Source: Candidatus Harrisonbacteria bacterium
Lineage (GTDB): Bacteria > Patescibacteriota > Minisyncoccia > UBA6257 > 1-14-0-10-40-38
DNA: 64,000 nucleotides
NCBI GenBank assembly: GCA_023245035.1
Contig: JAHFLD010000002.1
Span: 1,501-65,500, forward strand
Reading direction: 5' to 3'
The notes under the pieces are model-generated. The model saw only the letters and a program-made list of their open reading frames with translations, did not search any database and was not told the origin of the DNA. Every line of letters starts with the position of its first letter. Position 1 is the stretch's first letter. Positions 20,966-63,364 of this stretch are shown here, piece by piece. Position numbers and translations under genes: made by a program.

Positions 20966-21279
20966 GTTAAAACATCCGCATTCGGCGCATTTTTTTGTTG
21001 CGAGCTGTGGTGCTCAACGCAGTACTTGAATAAAGTACAGCTTATTCCGCTCCTCGCCTGCGCCTCAAACTGCGCACGAATGCGGATGTTTCAAGTCACG
21101 ATTGTCGTTCGCGCCTCGTATTTGTTCTTTTTAAATTAAGATACAGTATGCGAAAACTTTTTAGCCTGCCAAGCTTTCCATTCATTCTCCTCGCCCGCGC
21201 CTCAAACTGCATGCCCGAACGATTATATTTAGTCGGGCGGGCGCACGAACGCGGATGTTTCGAGACAACTCTTATTTTT

Positions 21280-42399: not shown

Positions 42400-42571
42400 A
42401 CCCCCATGTTTCTGTGAAGGGGTCGGGAAACGGTAGTTTCCCGTGGCGGAATTATTCAAACCGAGGGGTTTGAAGGAGGAGTGAAGCGACGACGAAACAT
42501 GGGTCTAAACGTTACCGAGTAACGTCGCCCGATCTTTGCTAGGCAAAGATTTAGGGATCGAAGTTAAATAG
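42400..42571 (+). mobile_element. Structured insertion downstream of rplK (family copy 3), with a duplicated rplK 3' end and a 31-nt core identical to copy 2
   Basis: The rplK end agaaacatgggg is followed by its reverse complement ccccatgtttct (42402-42413). The core aaggggtcgggaaacggtagtttcccgtggcgga...caaaccgaggggtttg follows. Direct copies of the rplK end then recur as gaaacatggg (42494-42503) and gggatcgaagttaaatag (42553-42570). rplA does not follow. Confidence 0.65.
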
Positions 42572-42575
42572 GCTC

Positions 42576-42709
42576 GGACTCTTCTTTTGCGGGGACCGGC
42601 TTTGATTTTTTTCCAGCGAAAAATCAAGCCTTCCTCTCGCGCTTCGCAATTCCTGACGGAATACCAAGCTGCGAAGCGCTCCGAGAGCTCCCCGCACAAA
42701 GAAGAGTCC
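42576..42709 (+). repeat. 134-bp nested palindrome (outer arms ggactcttcttttgcgggga / tccccgcacaaagaagagtcc; inner gcgcttcgca / tgcgaagcgc)
   Basis: Read directly from the sequence. Potential long hairpin RNA or cruciform. Confidence 0.7.
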
Positions 42710-42900
42710 TCGCTGGTTAGGGGAGAGAACTAGCGTTTAGGGTTCAGGGTCAAGCGTTTAGGCTTCAAAGCACAAAAGTCCTCGCTGGTGGGGGAATGAA
42801 TAGCGTTTGGCGGTTAGCGTTTAGGTGAATAGCATTAAGCGATTAGTGAGTAGGTCTTAAAATATGAAAGTCCTTGCGGTTCGAGGGTTGGGCTAGCGTT
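42700..42900 (+). repeat. Three degenerate tandem repeats of ~90 bp (unit begins aagtcctcgctggtgggg...tagcgtttagg)
   Basis: Units start at about 42700, 42790 and 42868. The related motif tcctcgctgggtgg recurs at 61872 and 61964. Confidence 0.6.
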
Positions 42901-42972
42901 GAGCGTTTACGGTAAGAAGTGTTTTTTAAATTTTTTGTACACAGCTTGGTTGGGCTTGGTTTATGATATAGT

Positions 42973-43923
42973 TTGGCTATGATCCATAAAAACTTTTGGC
43001 ATTATTTTGGGGTTTTGATGGCGATTATTGTGGTTAATGTGGGGTTTCTTAATTTTTCAACCAGTAAGATTGCCAGCGAGGTTGATACCTTGTCGAGTGT
43101 AATTACATCTACCGGTTCTTCGCCAACAGCGGCGGCTCCGGCCGAAGAAGTCGGTGGAACTTCGGGTGGCGGGTCTTCTCTAACTCAAAGAATTTGCGTT
43201 GACGATCCAAGTCCGGAAAATGACGGAATGAAGCCGGAGTTCGGTAAGGATGGCAAGATAGCCGGCGCCACTTATTCTTTAGAGTTCCAAAATGGAATAC
43301 CAGCCGATCATCGCAATCCAAATGGGACTCCTTTTACAATTGGTCAATATATTGCCGGGGTTAGTGTGTTTGGCGTTGACAGAAGTGAAGCGGGGGGTCT
43401 GGCCGATAGTGATTATAGCTATGACAACAACGATTCGGCTAAATGTGATGGAGTGCAATTAGATAAGGGTCGTCTCTTTAGTCCATCTTCCTACTATGGT
43501 GGTGTCGCTGGCAAGGTAAATGGCAAACCTTTTAGAGCTACCCTTTCCGTTGGTGTTGACCAGGGCAGAGATTGCAAAGAGTTAGGGCCCATTACAGCGG
43601 CAGAAAGCAAGCCGGTAAATACGAGTGGGAGTGCGAATCCAGTACTTAATCCAAATTCTTCGGCGGTAGTAGTTACCGAACAGGGTGGATCTTCCGGACA
43701 GCAGGGTGCGGTTATTAGCTCTGAATCCGGGGCGGTGGTATTGGAATATTTCTGCGGTTCAGATAATCACATCAAGGCGAAATACGTGGCCAAGGTAAAT
43801 AAGAGCGTTAATAAGAGAAAATATGCCCCAACTTTTCCCGCGAGTTCGGGCTTGAACAATCTGCTTAGTGATTTTGGATGGGGTCGGTTATTGGGTAGTT
43901 ATGCTTTTGGTTTTAAGGATTAA
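42973..43923 (+). CDS. Hypothetical secreted/membrane-anchored protein
   Basis: N-terminal TM/signal helix FGVLMAIIVVNVGFLNF. Paralogous N-terminus to the next gene. Confidence 0.55.
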   Translation: MAMIHKNFWHYFGVLMAIIVVNVGFLNFSTSKIASEVDTLSSVITSTGSSPTAAAPAEEVGGTSGGGSSLTQRICVDDPSPENDGMKPEFGKDGKIAGATYSLEFQNGIPADHRNPNGTPFTIGQYIAGVSVFGVDRSEAGGLADSDYSYDNNDSAKCDGVQLDKGRLFSPSSYYGGVAGKVNGKPFRATLSVGVDQGRDCKELGPITAAESKPVNTSGSANPVLNPNSSAVVVTEQGGSSGQQGAVISSESGAVVLEYFCGSDNHIKAKYVAKVNKSVNKRKYAPTFPASSGLNNLLSDFGWGRLLGSYAFGFKD

Positions 43924-53679: not shown

Positions 53680-54366
53680 ATGCCCGACTTGGCTTTGTTT
53701 CAACGCAGTATCGGTTTTTCTTTTTCGAATAACGCGCTGTTGCGCGAGGCGTTGACACACCGCTCGTATTTGAATGAGCGTCCGGACTGGGATGTTCCGA
53801 ACAATGAGCGATTGGAATTTTTGGGCGACGCCGTGCTGGAGCTTGCGGTTACTGAGGAGCTGTTTCATCGCTTTCCGGATCAGCAAGAGGGGATTTTGAC
53901 GAGCTATCGCGCCGCGCTGGTCAATTATCAAATTTTGGCGAAAATTGCCGGCGAGATTCAACTGGAGGCATTTATTTTTTTGTCGCGCGGTGAGGCCAAG
54001 GATACCGGCAAGGCGCGAGAAGTTATTTTGGCCAATGCTTTTGAGGCTTTGGTTGGGGGGCTGTATTTGGATCGCGGTTATGCCGAGGTAAAAAAGTTTA
54101 TTTTGACGAGAGTAATGGTTCACTTGGCGGAAATTATCGCCGAGGGAAGTTTTAAAGACGCCAAAAGTCTATTACAAGAGAAGGCGCAGAGTGTTTTTAA
54201 ATTGACTCCGAAGTACAAGGTTTTGCGGGAAACCGGTCCGGATCACGACCGGATTTTTACCATGGGAGTTTATTTCGGCGAGAAGTTGATTGCTGAAGGA
54301 TTTGGTCCTTCCAAACAGGACGCGGAACTTGAGGCGGCCAAGAGGGCGCTTGAAGGAATGAATTGA
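53680..54366 (+). CDS. rnc: Ribonuclease III
   Basis: Signature ERLEFLGDAVLELAV. C-terminal dsRBD. Confidence 0.92.
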   Translation: MPDLALFQRSIGFSFSNNALLREALTHRSYLNERPDWDVPNNERLEFLGDAVLELAVTEELFHRFPDQQEGILTSYRAALVNYQILAKIAGEIQLEAFIFLSRGEAKDTGKAREVILANAFEALVGGLYLDRGYAEVKKFILTRVMVHLAEIIAEGSFKDAKSLLQEKAQSVFKLTPKYKVLRETGPDHDRIFTMGVYFGEKLIAEGFGPSKQDAELEAAKRALEGMN

Positions 54367-54442
54367 AGCGCAGGGAAGTCGGTCGTTTTTCCGGCGGAGA
54401 AGCGACATGATTCTCTTTGTCGTATATTATTTAAGAGATTAC

Positions 54443-56578
54443 ATGAAACTTAAACGACTGGAGCTCGCGGGTTTTAAATCTTTTGCCAACAAGACCGTTT
54501 TGGATTTTACCGGCGGGATTACCGCGGTTGTGGGTCCCAACGGTTCCGGCAAGTCCAACATCATTGACGCTTTTCGCTGGATTTTGGGCGCGCGCGAGGC
54601 TAAAAATGCCCGCAGTTTGCGAGCCGAGGATGTAATTTTTGCCGGTACTCAAACGGCCTCGCGGATGAGCTTGGCGCAAGTCGCCGTGACTTTTGATAAT
54701 GCCGACCATTTTTTTCCCGTGGATTTCGCGGAGGTTACGGTTCGGCGCAAGATCAGCCGTGACGGCGAGGCGCGCTTTTATTTAAATGACGCCGAAGTTC
54801 GGCTAAAGGATGTTTTGGATTTTTTTGCCAAGTCGCGTCTGGGTTCCAAGGGTTTTTCCATCATTAACCAAGGAGAGAGCGATCTTTTTGTGAGGTCTCT
54901 GCCCAGAGAGCGGCGGATGATGCTGGAGGAAATATTGGGTTTGCGCCAGTTTCATATTAAAAAACACGATGCGGAGTTAAAGCTTGCGACGACGCGCGCT
55001 AATTTGGATAAGGCCAAAGCTCTGATTGAAGAGATGTTGCCTCACGTGCGTTTGTTGCGGCGCCAGACGGCGAAGCTCGCGCGGTTGGATGAGCTTAAAA
55101 GCGAGCTCGACGAAGTCAGCAAGCAATATTTTGGCAAGCGGTTGTCGGCGGCCTTGCACGAGGTCGCGCAGTTTGAACCGCGTTTTAAGATTTTGGATGA
55201 AAAAATGGCCGAGGCCAGGATTGTTTTCAAGGAGGCCGAGGGAGTTTTGCGCAAAGCCGAGGGCTTGGCTTCGCCGCGCGCCGTCTCCGGCGTTGATCAC
55301 TCGCGCGATAGAAAATTTTTAGATGAAAAACTTTTGGCGATGGAGAAGGAACTGAGCCGGATTGAGGCGCAAATTGAGTTTGCCGGAGTCCAAAAATCCG
55401 GAAGGCTTGATGCCGATGAGCTGGCCGATTTTTTGCGTGATTTTAAGATGAACGCGGAAGAGATTTTGGCCGCGGAAGATTTGGATGACTTGCACGCCTA
55501 TATCTTGCAGGTAGTGAAGGAGGTGGAGGCTTTGCTGGAGGCGGAGCAGGAAGTTCGGGGAAGCAACACCGGCGAGCTTAAATCAAAACGGGATAAGATC
55601 GCTATTTCGATTGAGGAGCTAAAGCGGCAGATCGCGCGTTTGGCCGTGGAAGATGAGTCGCGAACAGAGCAACTTCAGACATTTCAAAAAACTTTCAAGG
55701 AGGCTTTTACTTCTTTTGAGGTGGCGAAGGACCGGACGATAGTTTTAGAGAGAGAGCGGCGCGAGTTGGAATTTGCCCGCGAGAGGGTGCTTGGCAAGAT
55801 GCGGGATATTGAGTCCGAGATTGAAACTTTTGGCGGGCGGATAGATGAGTTTAAAACTTTTGCTTTTGATCCGCATTTTGATTTGGTTTCTGGCGAGCGA
55901 CGATTGGCCAAGCTTCGGATGGAGCTTGCGGCGGCGGGCGAGGTTGATCCCAGCTTGGTTCGGGAGGCGGAAGAGGCGGAGAAGCGCTACTCTTTTTTGG
56001 AGCGCGAGTTTGGCGACTTGGAAAAGGCGGCGGGGGATTTGCAGGCCTTGATCGCCGAGCTGGACGCGCGGATTCAGACGCAATTTAACGATTCGCTTAC
56101 GGCGATAAATCGGGAGTTGCAACAATATTTTCACCTGTTGTTTGGCGGCGGCAAGGCGCGTTTGGTGCTGACCAATCGCGAGGCTTTATCGAGCGATGGC
56201 GAGTCCGCCGAAGGTTCGGCTGATTCCGCGGGATCCGCGGATTTGGGCGGACTGGAAGTTGAGCTTTCGATTCCGCGTAAAAAAATTCATGGCTTGGAGA
56301 TGCTTTCCGGCGGGGAGCGCAGTTTGGTTTCGCTCGCCGTTTTATTTGCTTTGATTTCGGTCAGCCCGCCGCCGTTTATAGTTTTGGACGAAGCCGATGC
56401 GGCGCTTGATGAGCAAAACAGCCGCAAGTTTGGCCAGCTAGTTAAAAATTTTTCGGCGGGAACGCAATTTTTGGTGGTAACTCACAATCGCGCGACGATG
56501 GAGTCGGCGGATGCGTTGTATGGGGTTACTATGAGAGAAGATGGAACGTCCCGAATCCTATCGCTGAAGCTCAACTAA
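54443..56578 (+). CDS. smc: Short SMC-family chromosome segregation ATPase (~712 aa)
   Basis: Walker A GPNGSGKSNIIDA. Long coiled coil. Signature LSGGERSLVSLAVLFAL. Walker B FIVLDEADAALD. Confidence 0.8.
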   Translation: MKLKRLELAGFKSFANKTVLDFTGGITAVVGPNGSGKSNIIDAFRWILGAREAKNARSLRAEDVIFAGTQTASRMSLAQVAVTFDNADHFFPVDFAEVTVRRKISRDGEARFYLNDAEVRLKDVLDFFAKSRLGSKGFSIINQGESDLFVRSLPRERRMMLEEILGLRQFHIKKHDAELKLATTRANLDKAKALIEEMLPHVRLLRRQTAKLARLDELKSELDEVSKQYFGKRLSAALHEVAQFEPRFKILDEKMAEARIVFKEAEGVLRKAEGLASPRAVSGVDHSRDRKFLDEKLLAMEKELSRIEAQIEFAGVQKSGRLDADELADFLRDFKMNAEEILAAEDLDDLHAYILQVVKEVEALLEAEQEVRGSNTGELKSKRDKIAISIEELKRQIARLAVEDESRTEQLQTFQKTFKEAFTSFEVAKDRTIVLERERRELEFARERVLGKMRDIESEIETFGGRIDEFKTFAFDPHFDLVSGERRLAKLRMELAAAGEVDPSLVREAEEAEKRYSFLEREFGDLEKAAGDLQALIAELDARIQTQFNDSLTAINRELQQYFHLLFGGGKARLVLTNREALSSDGESAEGSADSAGSADLGGLEVELSIPRKKIHGLEMLSGGERSLVSLAVLFALISVSPPPFIVLDEADAALDEQNSRKFGQLVKNFSAGTQFLVVTHNRATMESADALYGVTMREDGTSRILSLKLN

Positions 56579-61091: not shown

Positions 61092-61487
61092 ATGAGAAAC
61101 GACTCGTCTGTTGAGGATGGGGTGGATACACTTCATCACAAACGCTACGCGGTTCAGATTTCGGCCAAGGGTACGTTGAAGGTGAATTCGGTTCCGGATG
61201 CGAGCAATAGTCAGAATTCCGATTCGCGGGGTCGGTTGTTCGCCATCAAGGCAAGCAATGTGGATGAACTGGCTCGGCCGAATGGGAAAGATTCCAAGTT
61301 TGGCCCGGGGGATGTTCTGGACGTGGAGTTGGATCGCGCTCAGGTTAGGATTGTGGGTTCGGGCTATGCGATACGCGCTTTGAGCGGTGTTGGCGTTGTG
61401 ATCTACGAAGGCGCTCGTCCTCGTATCCCTCGCCAGCTTGAGGATGCGTGTCCGCGAATCGCGCTTCTGCCTCGTTCTCCGTTTTAG
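61092..61487 (+). CDS. Hypothetical small protein (strong RBS)
   Basis: AAGGAGGAGG 5 nt before the ATG. Terminator hairpin ccacaggtttttaacctgtgg + T-run at 61516-61548. Confidence 0.55.
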   Translation: MRNDSSVEDGVDTLHHKRYAVQISAKGTLKVNSVPDASNSQNSDSRGRLFAIKASNVDELARPNGKDSKFGPGDVLDVELDRAQVRIVGSGYAIRALSGVGVVIYEGARPRIPRQLEDACPRIALLPRSPF

Positions 61488-61684
61488 GGAGTTTAGTACT
61501 TTTTGCCACAGGTTTTTAACCTGTGGCTTTTTGTATTTAGGGGTAAGAGAGTAATCTTGGGTGTGTATAACTTTTTATTTTCTTCTATTTCTGCTTATTT
61601 AGAGCCATTTTTTTGTTGATTTGCCTTGCTTGCTTGATGTTTTTGACCCAATGGGGAGCGGGGTATATACTTGGTGAAGAGTGG

Positions 61685-61775
61685 TGGGTTGTGGATAAGG
61701 GTGGGGATAAGTCCGGAATCTGGGGATAAGTGGGCGCTCGGACACATCTCTCTCAAGAGACGGGATAACATCTTT
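61685..61775 (+). promoter_or_regulatory. Cluster of GGATAAG boxes (TTGTGGATAAGG, TGGGGATAAGT x2, GGGATAACA) upstream of mraZ: candidate MraZ operator direct repeats or DnaA boxes
   Basis: TGTGGATAA matches the DnaA box consensus. TGGGGATAAGT repeats twice at 18-bp spacing. GTGGG-type repeats are the known MraZ operator type. Nested inverted repeats follow at 61741-61869. Confidence 0.45.
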
Positions 61776-62008
61776 TCCAACGAAGCTGTTTCCCTGTCTC
61801 TCGGCGAAATGATTTTGTTATTCAGCAAAAACCCAGCTCATTTCGCCTGCGAGAACCTCTTGAGGAGAGATGTGTCCTCGCTGGGTGGTTGAGCGGAAAA
61901 CCGATCTTTTTAAGTTTCCGAGAGTTGCCCGCCTGTTCGGCGGGCAAGTCCCAAAATACAAGAATCCTCGCTGGGTGGAAGCCAATCCTTATTTTTTAAA
62001 AAATCAAA

Positions 62009-62440
62009 ATGTTCATCGGGGAATATCAACACAATATAGACGACAAGGGGAGAATGGCGTTGCCGGTAAAGTTTCGCAAGGATTTGACCGATGGCGCGAT
62101 TATCACCAAGGGATTGGATGCTTGTCTTTTTGTTTTTACCAAAGCCGAATGGGCCACTTTGGCGGCAAAATTGGCGCAGATGCCTTTGGCCAACGCTCCG
62201 GCCAGAGCTTTTGCCCGTTTAATGCTGGCCGGCGCGATGGATGTTGATATTGACGCGCAAGGCCGAGTGTTGGTGCCGGATTATCTTCGTAAATACGCGG
62301 GACTCAAGAAAGCCACGGTGATTGCCGGTGTGTATAGCCGACTGGAGATTTGGGACGAGGAAGCTTGGAATCGCTACAAGGGCAAGACGGAGTCGGCGTC
62401 GGATGAGATTGCCGAACAGCTTGGCGGTCTTGGTATCTAA
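62009..62440 (+). CDS. mraZ: Transcriptional regulator MraZ
   Basis: MFIGEYQHNIDDKGRMALPVKFR. Two DXXXR-containing halves. Position before rsmH. Confidence 0.9.
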   Translation: MFIGEYQHNIDDKGRMALPVKFRKDLTDGAIITKGLDACLFVFTKAEWATLAAKLAQMPLANAPARAFARLMLAGAMDVDIDAQGRVLVPDYLRKYAGLKKATVIAGVYSRLEIWDEEAWNRYKGKTESASDEIAEQLGGLGI

Positions 62441-62446
62441 AAAAAT

Positions 62447-63364
62447 ATGCACACTCCAGTTTTAACCAATGAAGTTCTTGGTTTGCTTGATCCGAGGCCG
62501 GGACAATTTGTACTGGATGGAACCGTCGGTTCCGGCGGACACGCGCTTGAGTTGCTAAAAAAAATTCTTCCGGATGGAAAACTTTTGGCAATTGACGCGG
62601 ATCGATATTCTATTTTAGCGGCGGAACGGACGCTGGTCGCCGCCTTCGGGCGCGAGATTGTCGGCAGTCATGTGATTTTTGAACACGACACTTACGCGCG
62701 GGCGGCGCAGGCCGTTAGCCGTCATGGGTTTCCTTTGGTGCACGCCGCCTTGTTGGATCTGGGTTTTTCTTCCGATCAGATTGATTCGGCTGATCGTCCG
62801 CCACGCGGTTTTTCTTTTTTGTCTGATGAGCCATTGCTGATGACTTACAATGACGAGACGGTGGCGGTGCGGGATTTTTTACCGGAGTTGAGCGTTGCCG
62901 ACCTGGTAAAAATTCTTCGCGAATTTGGCGAAGAGAGGTACGCGATGAAAATCGCGACAGCGATCAAAGAACGCGAGCGAGTGCGCCCCTTTTTAACCAC
63001 GCGCGATTTGTCGGAAACCATTACCGCCGCGATTCCTCCGCGTTACGCGCGTGGCCGGATTCATCCGGCGACGCGAACTTTTATGGCTTTGCGGATTTAC
63101 GCCAACCAGGAGCTTAATCAGTTAAAACTTTTCTTGGCCGACATTTCTTTGATTGTGGCCACCGGAGGCCGGGTCGGAGTCATCTCCTTTCATTCATTGG
63201 AAGATCGCCTTGTAAAGCGCGACTTTTTGGCATTGGCAAAGGAAAATCGCGGGCGAATTATTACTAAAAAACCGGTAACCGCTTCGGCTAACGAGATCAG
63301 ACAAAATGCTCGCGCCCGTTCGGCAAAATTCCGCGTCTTGGAACTTGGTTCAAACACTTTATGA
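62447..63364 (+). CDS. rsmH: 16S rRNA (cytosine1402-N4)-methyltransferase RsmH
   Basis: PVLTNEVLGLL and DGTVGSGGHA SAM motif. Confidence 0.92.
   Translation: MHTPVLTNEVLGLLDPRPGQFVLDGTVGSGGHALELLKKILPDGKLLAIDADRYSILAAERTLVAAFGREIVGSHVIFEHDTYARAAQAVSRHGFPLVHAALLDLGFSSDQIDSADRPPRGFSFLSDEPLLMTYNDETVAVRDFLPELSVADLVKILREFGEERYAMKIATAIKERERVRPFLTTRDLSETITAAIPPRYARGRIHPATRTFMALRIYANQELNQLKLFLADISLIVATGGRVGVISFHSLEDRLVKRDFLALAKENRGRIITKKPVTASANEIRQNARARSAKFRVLELGSNTL

Follow-up and report, generated by a model that had tools for sequence, protein, structure and literature searches.

The window, by which we mean the whole 64-kb stretch of DNA analysed here, comes from a genome of the Patescibacteria (Paceibacterota). 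It carries the gene mraZ at the head of a dcw cluster, in which rsmH, an ftsL-like gene, a PBP and mur ligases follow mraZ, and on the 5' side of the region lie rplJ-rplL, one tRNA and three small ORFs. The intergenic region upstream of mraZ spans 61488-62008, the preceding ORF occupying 61092-61487. The closest relatives of the encoded MraZ, with 95% to 60% identity, belong to groundwater MAGs named Paceibacterota, Liptonbacteria, Harrisonbacteria etc. An independent assembly from another sample (L201) is identical to the window over all 504 shared bases (61517-62020), and the region is therefore no assembly artefact. Apart from the folded element treated further below, the locus holds the following features.

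61505-61537, + strand: intrinsic terminator of ORF 61092-61487, GCCACAGGTT-ttt-AACCTGTGGC followed by a T-run
61562-61570, + strand: distal TGTGTATAA box of the TTATNCACA type, ~119 nt 5' of box 1
61643-61671, + strand: predicted sigma-70-type promoter, TTGACC (61643-61648), 17-nt spacer, TATACT (61666-61671)
61681-61704, + strand: probable MraZ operator core, GTGG boxes 1-3 at 61681, 61691 and 61701 with 6-nt spacers
61681-61731, + strand: array-like span of the probable operator including the fourth box (boxes 1-4)
61721-61731, + strand: fourth box, TGGGGATAAGT, 19 nt past the GGATAA of box 3, equal to two helical turns
62009-62440, + strand: mraZ, 143 aa, Pfam MraZ E=2e-39, K13, R15 and R86 present
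62447-63364, + strand: rsmH, directly 3' of mraZ

The terminator scan made a single call in the region (61505-61527, with a T-run after it). The promoter scan returned one strong + strand site with 10/12 matches at 61643-61671, and from its -10 element (61666-61671) the start of transcription is predicted near 61678. Immediately downstream the boxes begin. Box 2 reads TGTGGATAA (61690-61698) and box 3 GTGGGGATAAGT; the longer string TTGTGGATAAGG lies at 61689-61700, and TGGGGATAAGT is found both at 61702-61712 and at 61721-61731. The preliminary description, an earlier reading of the same DNA, had set the two TGGGGATAAGT strings 18 bp apart; their starts are in fact 19 nt apart, with a gap of 8 nt. 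When up to one mismatch is allowed, TGGGGATAAGT has 4 matches against 0.79 expected, a number that 0 of 100 shuffles reached, and the pattern GTGK-N6-GTGK-N6-GTGK occurs a single time in the 64-kb window.

Conservation was assessed in mraZ loci of which 80 came from species-representative genomes and another 80 from metagenomes; 157 were usable. Within 400 nt upstream of mraZ, GTGG-N6-GTGG was present in 146/157 loci, against 29 matches in 3.86 Mb of background. Of the mraZ upstream regions, 73/157 had the strict three-box pattern and 75/157 had GGATAA-N6-GGATAA, each with 2 matches in the background, and a box at the spacing of the fourth was found in 67/157. Across loci the consensus is aaGTGGggaattGTGGATAAntGTGGGGATAAgt, then TG(T/G)GGATAAc 19-20 nt on, and this array always stands ~10 nt 3' of a TAtAAT -10 element. 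The promoter-to-box geometry of the window is repeated in related loci, and distal boxes at a comparable position recur there too. The 95%-identical relative (L001/L088) shares with the window leader nothing beyond the last box and an A/T-rich stretch preceding the ATG.

[quoted passage not shown] The experimentally defined operator of E. coli Pmra, GTGGGaaattGTGGGgcaaaGTGGGaataaGGGG 3' of the -10 element, and the four-box operator of Mycoplasma genitalium share with the window direct GTG(G/T) boxes with 6-nt spacers right after the -10 element, overlapping the predicted start site upstream of mraZ-rsmH. The agreement extends to the third box, which is ...GGGATAAG in the window and GTGGGAATAAG in E. 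coli, and to the protein, where the window translation (...DDK13GR15MALP... and ...DAQGR86VLVP...) keeps all three contact residues. Since phased boxes are conserved and the layout is that of E. coli, 61681-61731 can be taken as the orthologue of known MraZ operators, its boxes tailed by GGATAA and its fourth box set two turns off. The preliminary description had noted a fit to the MraZ operator type, and this assignment is sustained by the canonical 10-bp phasing, the promoter just 5', conservation in ~150 loci, near-identity to E. coli and the intact contact residues. Most likely, judging from these comparisons, the span is an ordinary MraZ self-repression site conserved across Patescibacteria.

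The window array also departs from the known operators. Its boxes carry the GGATAA tail, so that boxes 2 and 4 mimic a DnaA 9-mer; its fourth box is two turns away instead of one; and many relatives have extra boxes, some of them inverted, up to 150 nt upstream. On the alignments, the GGATAA tail is a lineage-specific trait, a Patescibacteria flavour of the MraZ box. By homology to E. coli and Mycoplasma we infer the following course of events. RNA polymerase would bind TTGACC-17-TATACT and initiate near 61678, either within box 1 or slightly 5' of it; an MraZ oligomer, encoded 330 nt downstream, would occupy the phased GTGG boxes at 61681, 61691 and 61701 together with the fourth at 61721; and binding across the start site would repress its own operon. 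The 330-nt distance between operator and start codon is owed to the inserted element. If so, the model of MraZ autoregulation would also cover the Candidate Phyla Radiation, where the boxes follow a clear consensus and additional distal ones are present. The value of such a result lies in that candidate phyla are hard to culture and that almost no transcriptional regulation has been described for them.

A different reading of the same boxes is that they are DnaA boxes, forming a DnaA-regulated promoter, a titrating cluster of the datA/DBC kind or a part of oriC, and thereby coupling replication initiation to division. Like the DnaA-box clusters of oriC, datA and the B. subtilis DBCs, the region holds several TTATNCACA-like 9-mers within 170 bp, namely one perfect TTATCCACA (61690-61698), one TTATACACA (61562-61570) and two TTATCCCCA. 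In related loci TTATNCACA reaches 3.44 per kb over the 400 nt 5' of mraZ vs 0.046 per kb elsewhere (~75-fold), and the boxes there stand in both orientations, also 5' of the -35 element, with C, G or A as the middle base as in the DnaA consensus. Moreover, the distal TTATNCACA boxes around the promoter, GTGC variants included, are closer to the DnaA consensus than to GTG(G/T). However, the feature that never varies between loci is GTGG phased at 10 bp; the ATAA tail is missing from box 1; box 3 is mostly TGGGGATAA (TTATCCCCA), so that the commonest variant breaks with the DnaA consensus; and the same layout, in which phasing and box 1 obey the MraZ rule, is found in the proven E. coli operator. 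The "perfect DnaA-box core" of the preliminary description does exist as a 9-mer, but it is box 2 of the MraZ array. Exact TTATNCACA matches number two in the region (61562-70 and 61690-98), those inside the array are all explained by MraZ phasing, and single 9-mers such as TTATCCACA are expected ~0.5 times per window by chance.

The earlier suggestion of a DnaA-titrating region near oriC, for which a GC-skew check had been proposed, gains no support from the wider sequence either. Between 4 kb and 64 kb the skew of each of the sixteen 4-kb bins is above zero (+0.10 to +0.18), the sign changes nowhere in the window, and a search of the 64 kb for a DnaA signature motif gave no match. Unlike known DnaA-box clusters, the window has neither a skew switch nor adjacent dnaA/dnaN nor an evident unwinding element. 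The literature search found no published link of DnaA boxes to an mraZ promoter. As the window shows neither a switch in GC skew nor a dnaA signature, the DnaA/oriC reading is unsupported, and we regard it as improbable; functional DnaA binding at the mraZ promoter, taken by itself, seems to us similarly improbable on the sequences at hand. Should boxes of this kind nevertheless be read by both MraZ and DnaA, they would link replication initiation to division in minimal cells.

Downstream of box 4 the leader is occupied by a folded element, of which the window contains two copies, A and B. Their parts are as follows.

61736-61884, + strand: structured element copy A, a three-way junction with P0, an internal loop, P1 and the hairpins P2 and P3
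61736-37 with 61880-81, + strand: P0 of copy A, GC/GC, 2 bp, then a symmetric UC x UC internal loop
61740-61759 with 61857-61877, + strand: P1 of copy A, GGACACATCTCTCTCAAGAG / CTCTTGAGGAGAGATGTGTCC, ~20 bp with one bulge
61762-61794, + strand: hairpin P2 of copy A, loop UCCAAC(G) at 61776-61781, family consensus YCCWGCGR
61797-61854, + strand: hairpin P3 of copy A, base CUCG...CUGCGAG, arms ctctcggcgaaatga (61798-61812) / tcatttcgcctgcgaga (61838-61854)
61875-61888, + strand: first copy of TCCTCGCTGGGTGG, the end of P1 plus P0 and hence the 3' terminus of the element
61922-61950, + strand: GC-rich hairpin between the two tcctcgctgggtgg boxes, GAGTTGCCCGCC-tgttc-GGCGGGCAAGTC, with no U-run after it
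61965-61978, + strand: second copy of TCCTCGCTGGGTGG, a duplicate of the 3'-terminal motif of the element, 90 nt downstream
42572-42716, + strand: element copy B, a paralog between rplK and ORF 42973

In copy A, P3 has a 7-nt 3' bulge, ACCCAGC at 61831-61837 (family consensus RACCNWGC), and the 3'-terminal motif is GTCCTCGCTGG. Part of this fold had been recognized in the preliminary description. The inner pair ctctcggcgaaatga / tcatttcgcctgcgaga was correct as given. The pairing of the outer stem is real too, but the helix is longer than had been claimed, running to the ~20 bp of P1; inside it cacatctctc (61743-61752) pairs with gagagatgtg, which lies at 61865-61874 and not at 61858-61867. 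The string GGGATAACA (61762-61770), previously counted with the box cluster, forms the 5' arm of P2 and is not conserved in the paralog. The second inner hairpin at 61762-61794 and the distal TGTGTATAA box at 61562-61570 were absent from that description. Two tcctcgctgggtgg boxes do precede mraZ, as it had said, but they are the 3' terminus of the element and its duplicate, and hence not parts of the operator. With up to two mismatches TCCTCGCTGGGTGG has 4 matches in the window vs 0.25 expected, the other two falling in the paralog at 42.7 kb, and similar downstream duplicates of the 3' motif are also present at copy B and in L092. No intrinsic terminator follows the element, there being no T-run after 61877 or 61950.

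Copy B was located via a search for the TCCTCGCTGG box. Like copy A it is flanked by GCTCGGAC...GTCCTCGCTGG, and it has the loops and architecture of copy A, but different stem sequences, 19 of 43 pairs being compensated between the two copies. Its 3' boxes stand at 42707, 42779 and 42870, the last two being extra. A covariance model built from four copies (A, B and one each in L068 and L069) identified 16 copies in ~2 Mb of Patescibacteria loci, i.e. 14 beyond A and B, all of them in 9 of ~165 sources, with element sizes of 140-190 nt. In the alignment of these copies, which was fitted to the model, paired cells amount to 87.7%, as compared to 55% in shuffles and 42-47% with slid partners; in the same model-fitted alignment, 37 of the 40 modelled pairs show changes on both sides. 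Owing to the conserved loops the model is strongly strand-specific (150-155 bits vs 13-18 bits). An unfiltered search of the window with the model found copies A and B only; the copy number is 2 in ~73 kb of this genome. Other routes were less productive: a regex descriptor search gave mostly false positives in GC-rich coding DNA, and a MAFFT core alignment was too poor for P3 modelling.

The element has no counterpart in the catalogues searched. Rfam 15 gave no match at E<=1 in 60-64 kb and only chance-level matches at E<=10 in 61480-62020, and there was no Rfam match at the element copies in L068, L069 and L092. When gathering and permissive searches were run on the window, both element loci and three related loci, only tRNAs, an L10 leader and chance-level matches were returned. 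A literature search likewise yielded no description of such an element in Patescibacteria. Like the mraW RNA motif (Rfam RF01746) and other Rfam leaders, it is a predicted structured RNA 5' of mraZ/mraW (rsmH); unlike that motif, to which a 541-nt search gave no match at E<=10, it has another architecture and is not restricted to one operon.

The element stands directly 3' of box 4 in the window, L068, L069 and L092, and L096 has at its mraZ leader a shorter, diverged orthologue that the model missed. Further copies are found 5' of the promoter in L123 and in an intercistronic position in L069 (15268-15454), and 14 of the 16 are clearly intergenic, the other two overlapping an uncurated ORF call. 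Twelve copies are co-oriented with their neighbours and four are antisense to both. Conversely, the element is missing from most mraZ leaders, including those of the closer relatives L002, L004 and L129. The ~130-nt structured leader proposed earlier is a true fold, but it does not belong to the division promoter in particular: it is one copy of a multi-copy element that also follows rplK and that most mraZ leaders lack. On the covariation and distribution just described, 61736-61884 is one copy of an uncatalogued, lineage-restricted, multi-copy folded element and not an mraZ-specific leader.

Several simpler accounts were considered and set aside. Coding by the 73-aa and 125-aa ORFs across the element was rejected, as the copies differ completely in sequence while their pairs are kept. 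The bias toward a pyrimidine-rich 5' and a purine-rich 3' strand of P1 proved not to be general. A pseudoknot was considered since the P2 loop CCAGCGA of copy B and the 3' box UCGCUGG, like the P3 bulge ACCCAGC of copy A and GCUGGGU, pair perfectly; other genomes show no conservation or covariation of either pairing. That repeats and stems alike result from chance in local composition is practically impossible, being ruled out by shuffles, by conservation in ~150 loci and by covariation. The box and repeat strings quoted in the preliminary description are all present; the shuffles, the fold of 61730-61990 (z = -6.1 vs shuffles) and the identical L201 sequence show the features to be real and far above chance.

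By being multi-copy, intergenic, folded, patchy in distribution and present in either orientation, the element counts as a dispersed structured intergenic repeat in the broad ERIC/REP-like sense. ERIC/IRU, REP/BIME, pneumococcal BOX and Neisseria Correia elements are similarly intergenic, 100-200 nt in length, often transcribed and folded into long hairpins; they are also multi-copy, found in either orientation and sometimes as inverted pairs, and patchy among strains. Unlike them, the present element is a three-way junction with two conserved loops in which structure, and not stem sequence, is held in common; it shows no duplication of TA or another target, and its copy number is low. Resemblance of another kind exists with the intervening sequences that RNase III excises from rRNA, which include short ORF-less insertions in CPR rRNA genes (PMC11270868). 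Both are ~100-200 nt long and ORF-less, with a long closing basal helix, and are common in reduced genomes, but the window element is placed in mRNA leaders and intergenic spacers and not in rRNA.

What the element does may be approached from these parallels. It would be transcribed as the middle of a ~330-nt 5' UTR leader of mraZ. A 20-bp perfect helix is a textbook substrate of RNase III, and ERIC and Correia elements alter the processing and stability of mRNAs, through RNase E in the case of ERIC and RNase III in that of Correia. The long perfect basal helix P1 (20 bp) could accordingly be a candidate substrate for the RNase III encoded in the window (rnc, 53680-54366); both the ~20-bp basal helix and the host RNase III gene of an IVS-like arrangement are present. 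Our best guess is that the element acts, or is merely tolerated, as an RNA-level module of processing or stability of the ERIC/Correia/IVS kind, and that it is probably no ligand- or MraZ-specific switch.

The main rival to a function of this kind is that the element is mobile or selfish DNA, either MITE-like or a folded single-stranded substrate of recombination or transposition, and that the mraZ leader merely tolerates or attracts its insertion. The restriction of many copies to few lineages, the patchiness at the mraZ leader even among relatives, the occurrence of both orientations and the tail-to-tail pairs between co-directional genes in L007 and L068 would all agree with this, as would the partial duplication of the 3' end downstream. 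Short-read contigs break next to both copies, and in this genome the stems are perfectly Watson-Crick. G.U is furthermore in no clear excess over A.C in the element pairs (36 vs 25, or 24 vs 25 once one conserved U.G is left out), and in 13 of the 16 copies the fold of the reverse strand is at least as good. However, no target-site duplication was found. CTCG on both flanks was considered as one and rejected, since the flanks form an inverted helix around a CUCG/CUCG loop; as P0 they pair with each other and covary between copies (GC/GC, GGGGGGGG/CCACCCCC, ACGGG/CCCGU). Copies within one genome have only loops and junctions in common, and compensatory changes separate their stems, which sets them apart from recently amplified MITEs. 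None of the copies examined has a transposase, integrase or reverse transcriptase in its vicinity. In viral contigs the three-block pattern gave 30 matches, 0 of which were confirmed by the covariance model. The orthologous, diverged versions at the same site in L092 and L096 suggest evolution in place. Covarying inverted flanks, non-identical copies and the lack of mobility genes nearby argue against a classical MITE, and we consider a mobile or selfish origin rather unlikely overall, while still a serious contender. The other alternative is that the element is an mraZ- or dcw-specific cis-regulatory RNA (a riboswitch, an attenuator or a protein-binding leader) tuning division genes. In no fewer than four or five lineages it stands in the 5' UTR immediately 3' of box 4, a placement more frequent than the overall density of the element predicts, and the conserved loops suggest a bound factor. 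But a second copy lies 3' of rplK in this genome, and elsewhere copies stand between unrelated genes, sometimes antisense; the majority of mraZ leaders do without it; there is neither a terminator nor a platform that would sequester a Shine-Dalgarno sequence 3' of it; and it matches no Rfam family, the mraW motif included. A division-specific switch is hence hardly to be expected.

Taken together, it is probable that the locus holds two unrelated features side by side, a dcw promoter with its MraZ operator and a lineage-restricted multi-copy folded element. As to the level at which the latter works, the missing G.U bias, the folding of the reverse strand and the 4/16 antisense copies leave a + strand RNA role open to a DNA-level alternative; an element that is selfish or works as DNA has about the same likelihood as one with such a role. 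We would also entertain, tentatively and with somewhat less than even confidence, that something new is present here: an undescribed, Paceibacteria-specific functional nucleic acid whose loops would serve a dedicated protein or ribonuclease as recognition sites, and of which several copies would be kept per genome, recurrently in the dcw leader. The lesser possibility under the same heading is that the GGATAA-tailed boxes are read by MraZ as well as DnaA.

In either case the element, which shows strong compensatory variation and has no entry in Rfam, is a candidate for a new family; it is placed in the 5' UTR of a cell-division operon and beside genes of ribosomal proteins, and its host genomes have very few regulators. 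If functional, it would represent a layer of control by RNA processing or RNA binding in ultra-small bacteria. If selfish, it would be the group's first described dispersed repeat of such a kind and, in practice, a reason why assemblies break. Two minor observations concern the related leaders. Those without the element often carry ATTCG(C/T)(G/A) repeats instead, and in L092 there are three CCTYCRCT modules, the third of which repeats the 3' strand of P1.

The mraZ leaders of related loci that are devoid of the structured element, the three-way-junction repeat that occupies the mraZ leader of the window as copy A, constitute a second leader type. These often carry three to six copies of the motif ATTCG(C/T)(G/A) between the operator, i.e. 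the phased GTGG boxes that form a putative MraZ site, and the ATG, and a perfect palindrome, ATTCGCGAAT, is found among the copies. Leaders with these repeats are located as follows:

L002, 2880-2995, ATTCG(C/T)(G/A) repeat leader
L004, 2945-2990, ATTCG(C/T)(G/A) repeat leader
L129, 330-420, ATTCG(C/T)(G/A) repeat leader
L021 and L030, leaders with the same repeats

In many relatives (L025, L045, L039 and others), a phased GTGG array surrounds the whole mraZ promoter, from -60 to +30. The GTGG boxes of L025 are placed at 0, 10, 21, 42, 52 and 62, with GTGGTTGAC falling on the -35 element and GTGGnGTAnAAT on the -10 element.

Within the genome of the window each element has one loop with perfect complementarity, over 7 nt, to a downstream box. 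The sequences are ACCCAGC/GCTGGGT in copy A (61831-61837 versus 61880-61886 and 61970-61976) and CCAGCGA/TCGCTGG in copy B, the element that follows rplK (42612-42619 versus 42710-42716). This loop-to-box pairing is confined to the window genome, and is not conserved elsewhere.

ACCCCCATGTTTC and GAAACATGGGT form a long-range stem around a structured region at 42400-42510, directly 3' of the rplK stop codon, and rplA is not the next gene after rplK in the window. The motif (T)AGCGTTTAGG is repeated five or six times between copy B and the promoter of the ORF at 42973-43923 (42730-42913), possibly as an operator or a repeat array. Among Logan contigs, built from short reads, that belong to the strain of the window, one begins 77 nt upstream of mraZ (L200, position 1) and another ends 46 nt after rplK (L198, 3' end), each beside a copy of the element, and these positions are consistent with repeat-induced assembly breaks.

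The related locus L068 contains a match to the L10 leader (2208-2324) that, at 35.7 bits, falls short of the gathering score of 44. It adjoins a copy of the element that lies in antisense orientation at 2015-2185, upstream of rplJ.

A further large folded intergenic element lies at 20972-21264 of the window, downstream of a T2SS-F (pilC-like) gene, and the covariance model of the copy A/B family gives no match to it. Here AAACATCCGCATTCGGCGCA pairs with TGCGCACGAATGCGGATGTTT in a stem of 20 bp, the fold has a z-score of -4.8, and a second copy of the 3' half together with a CTCCTCGCC box is present at 21188-21264. Elsewhere in the window, an RNase III gene (53680-54366; signature NERLEFLGD) is directly followed by an SMC-family gene (54407-56578).
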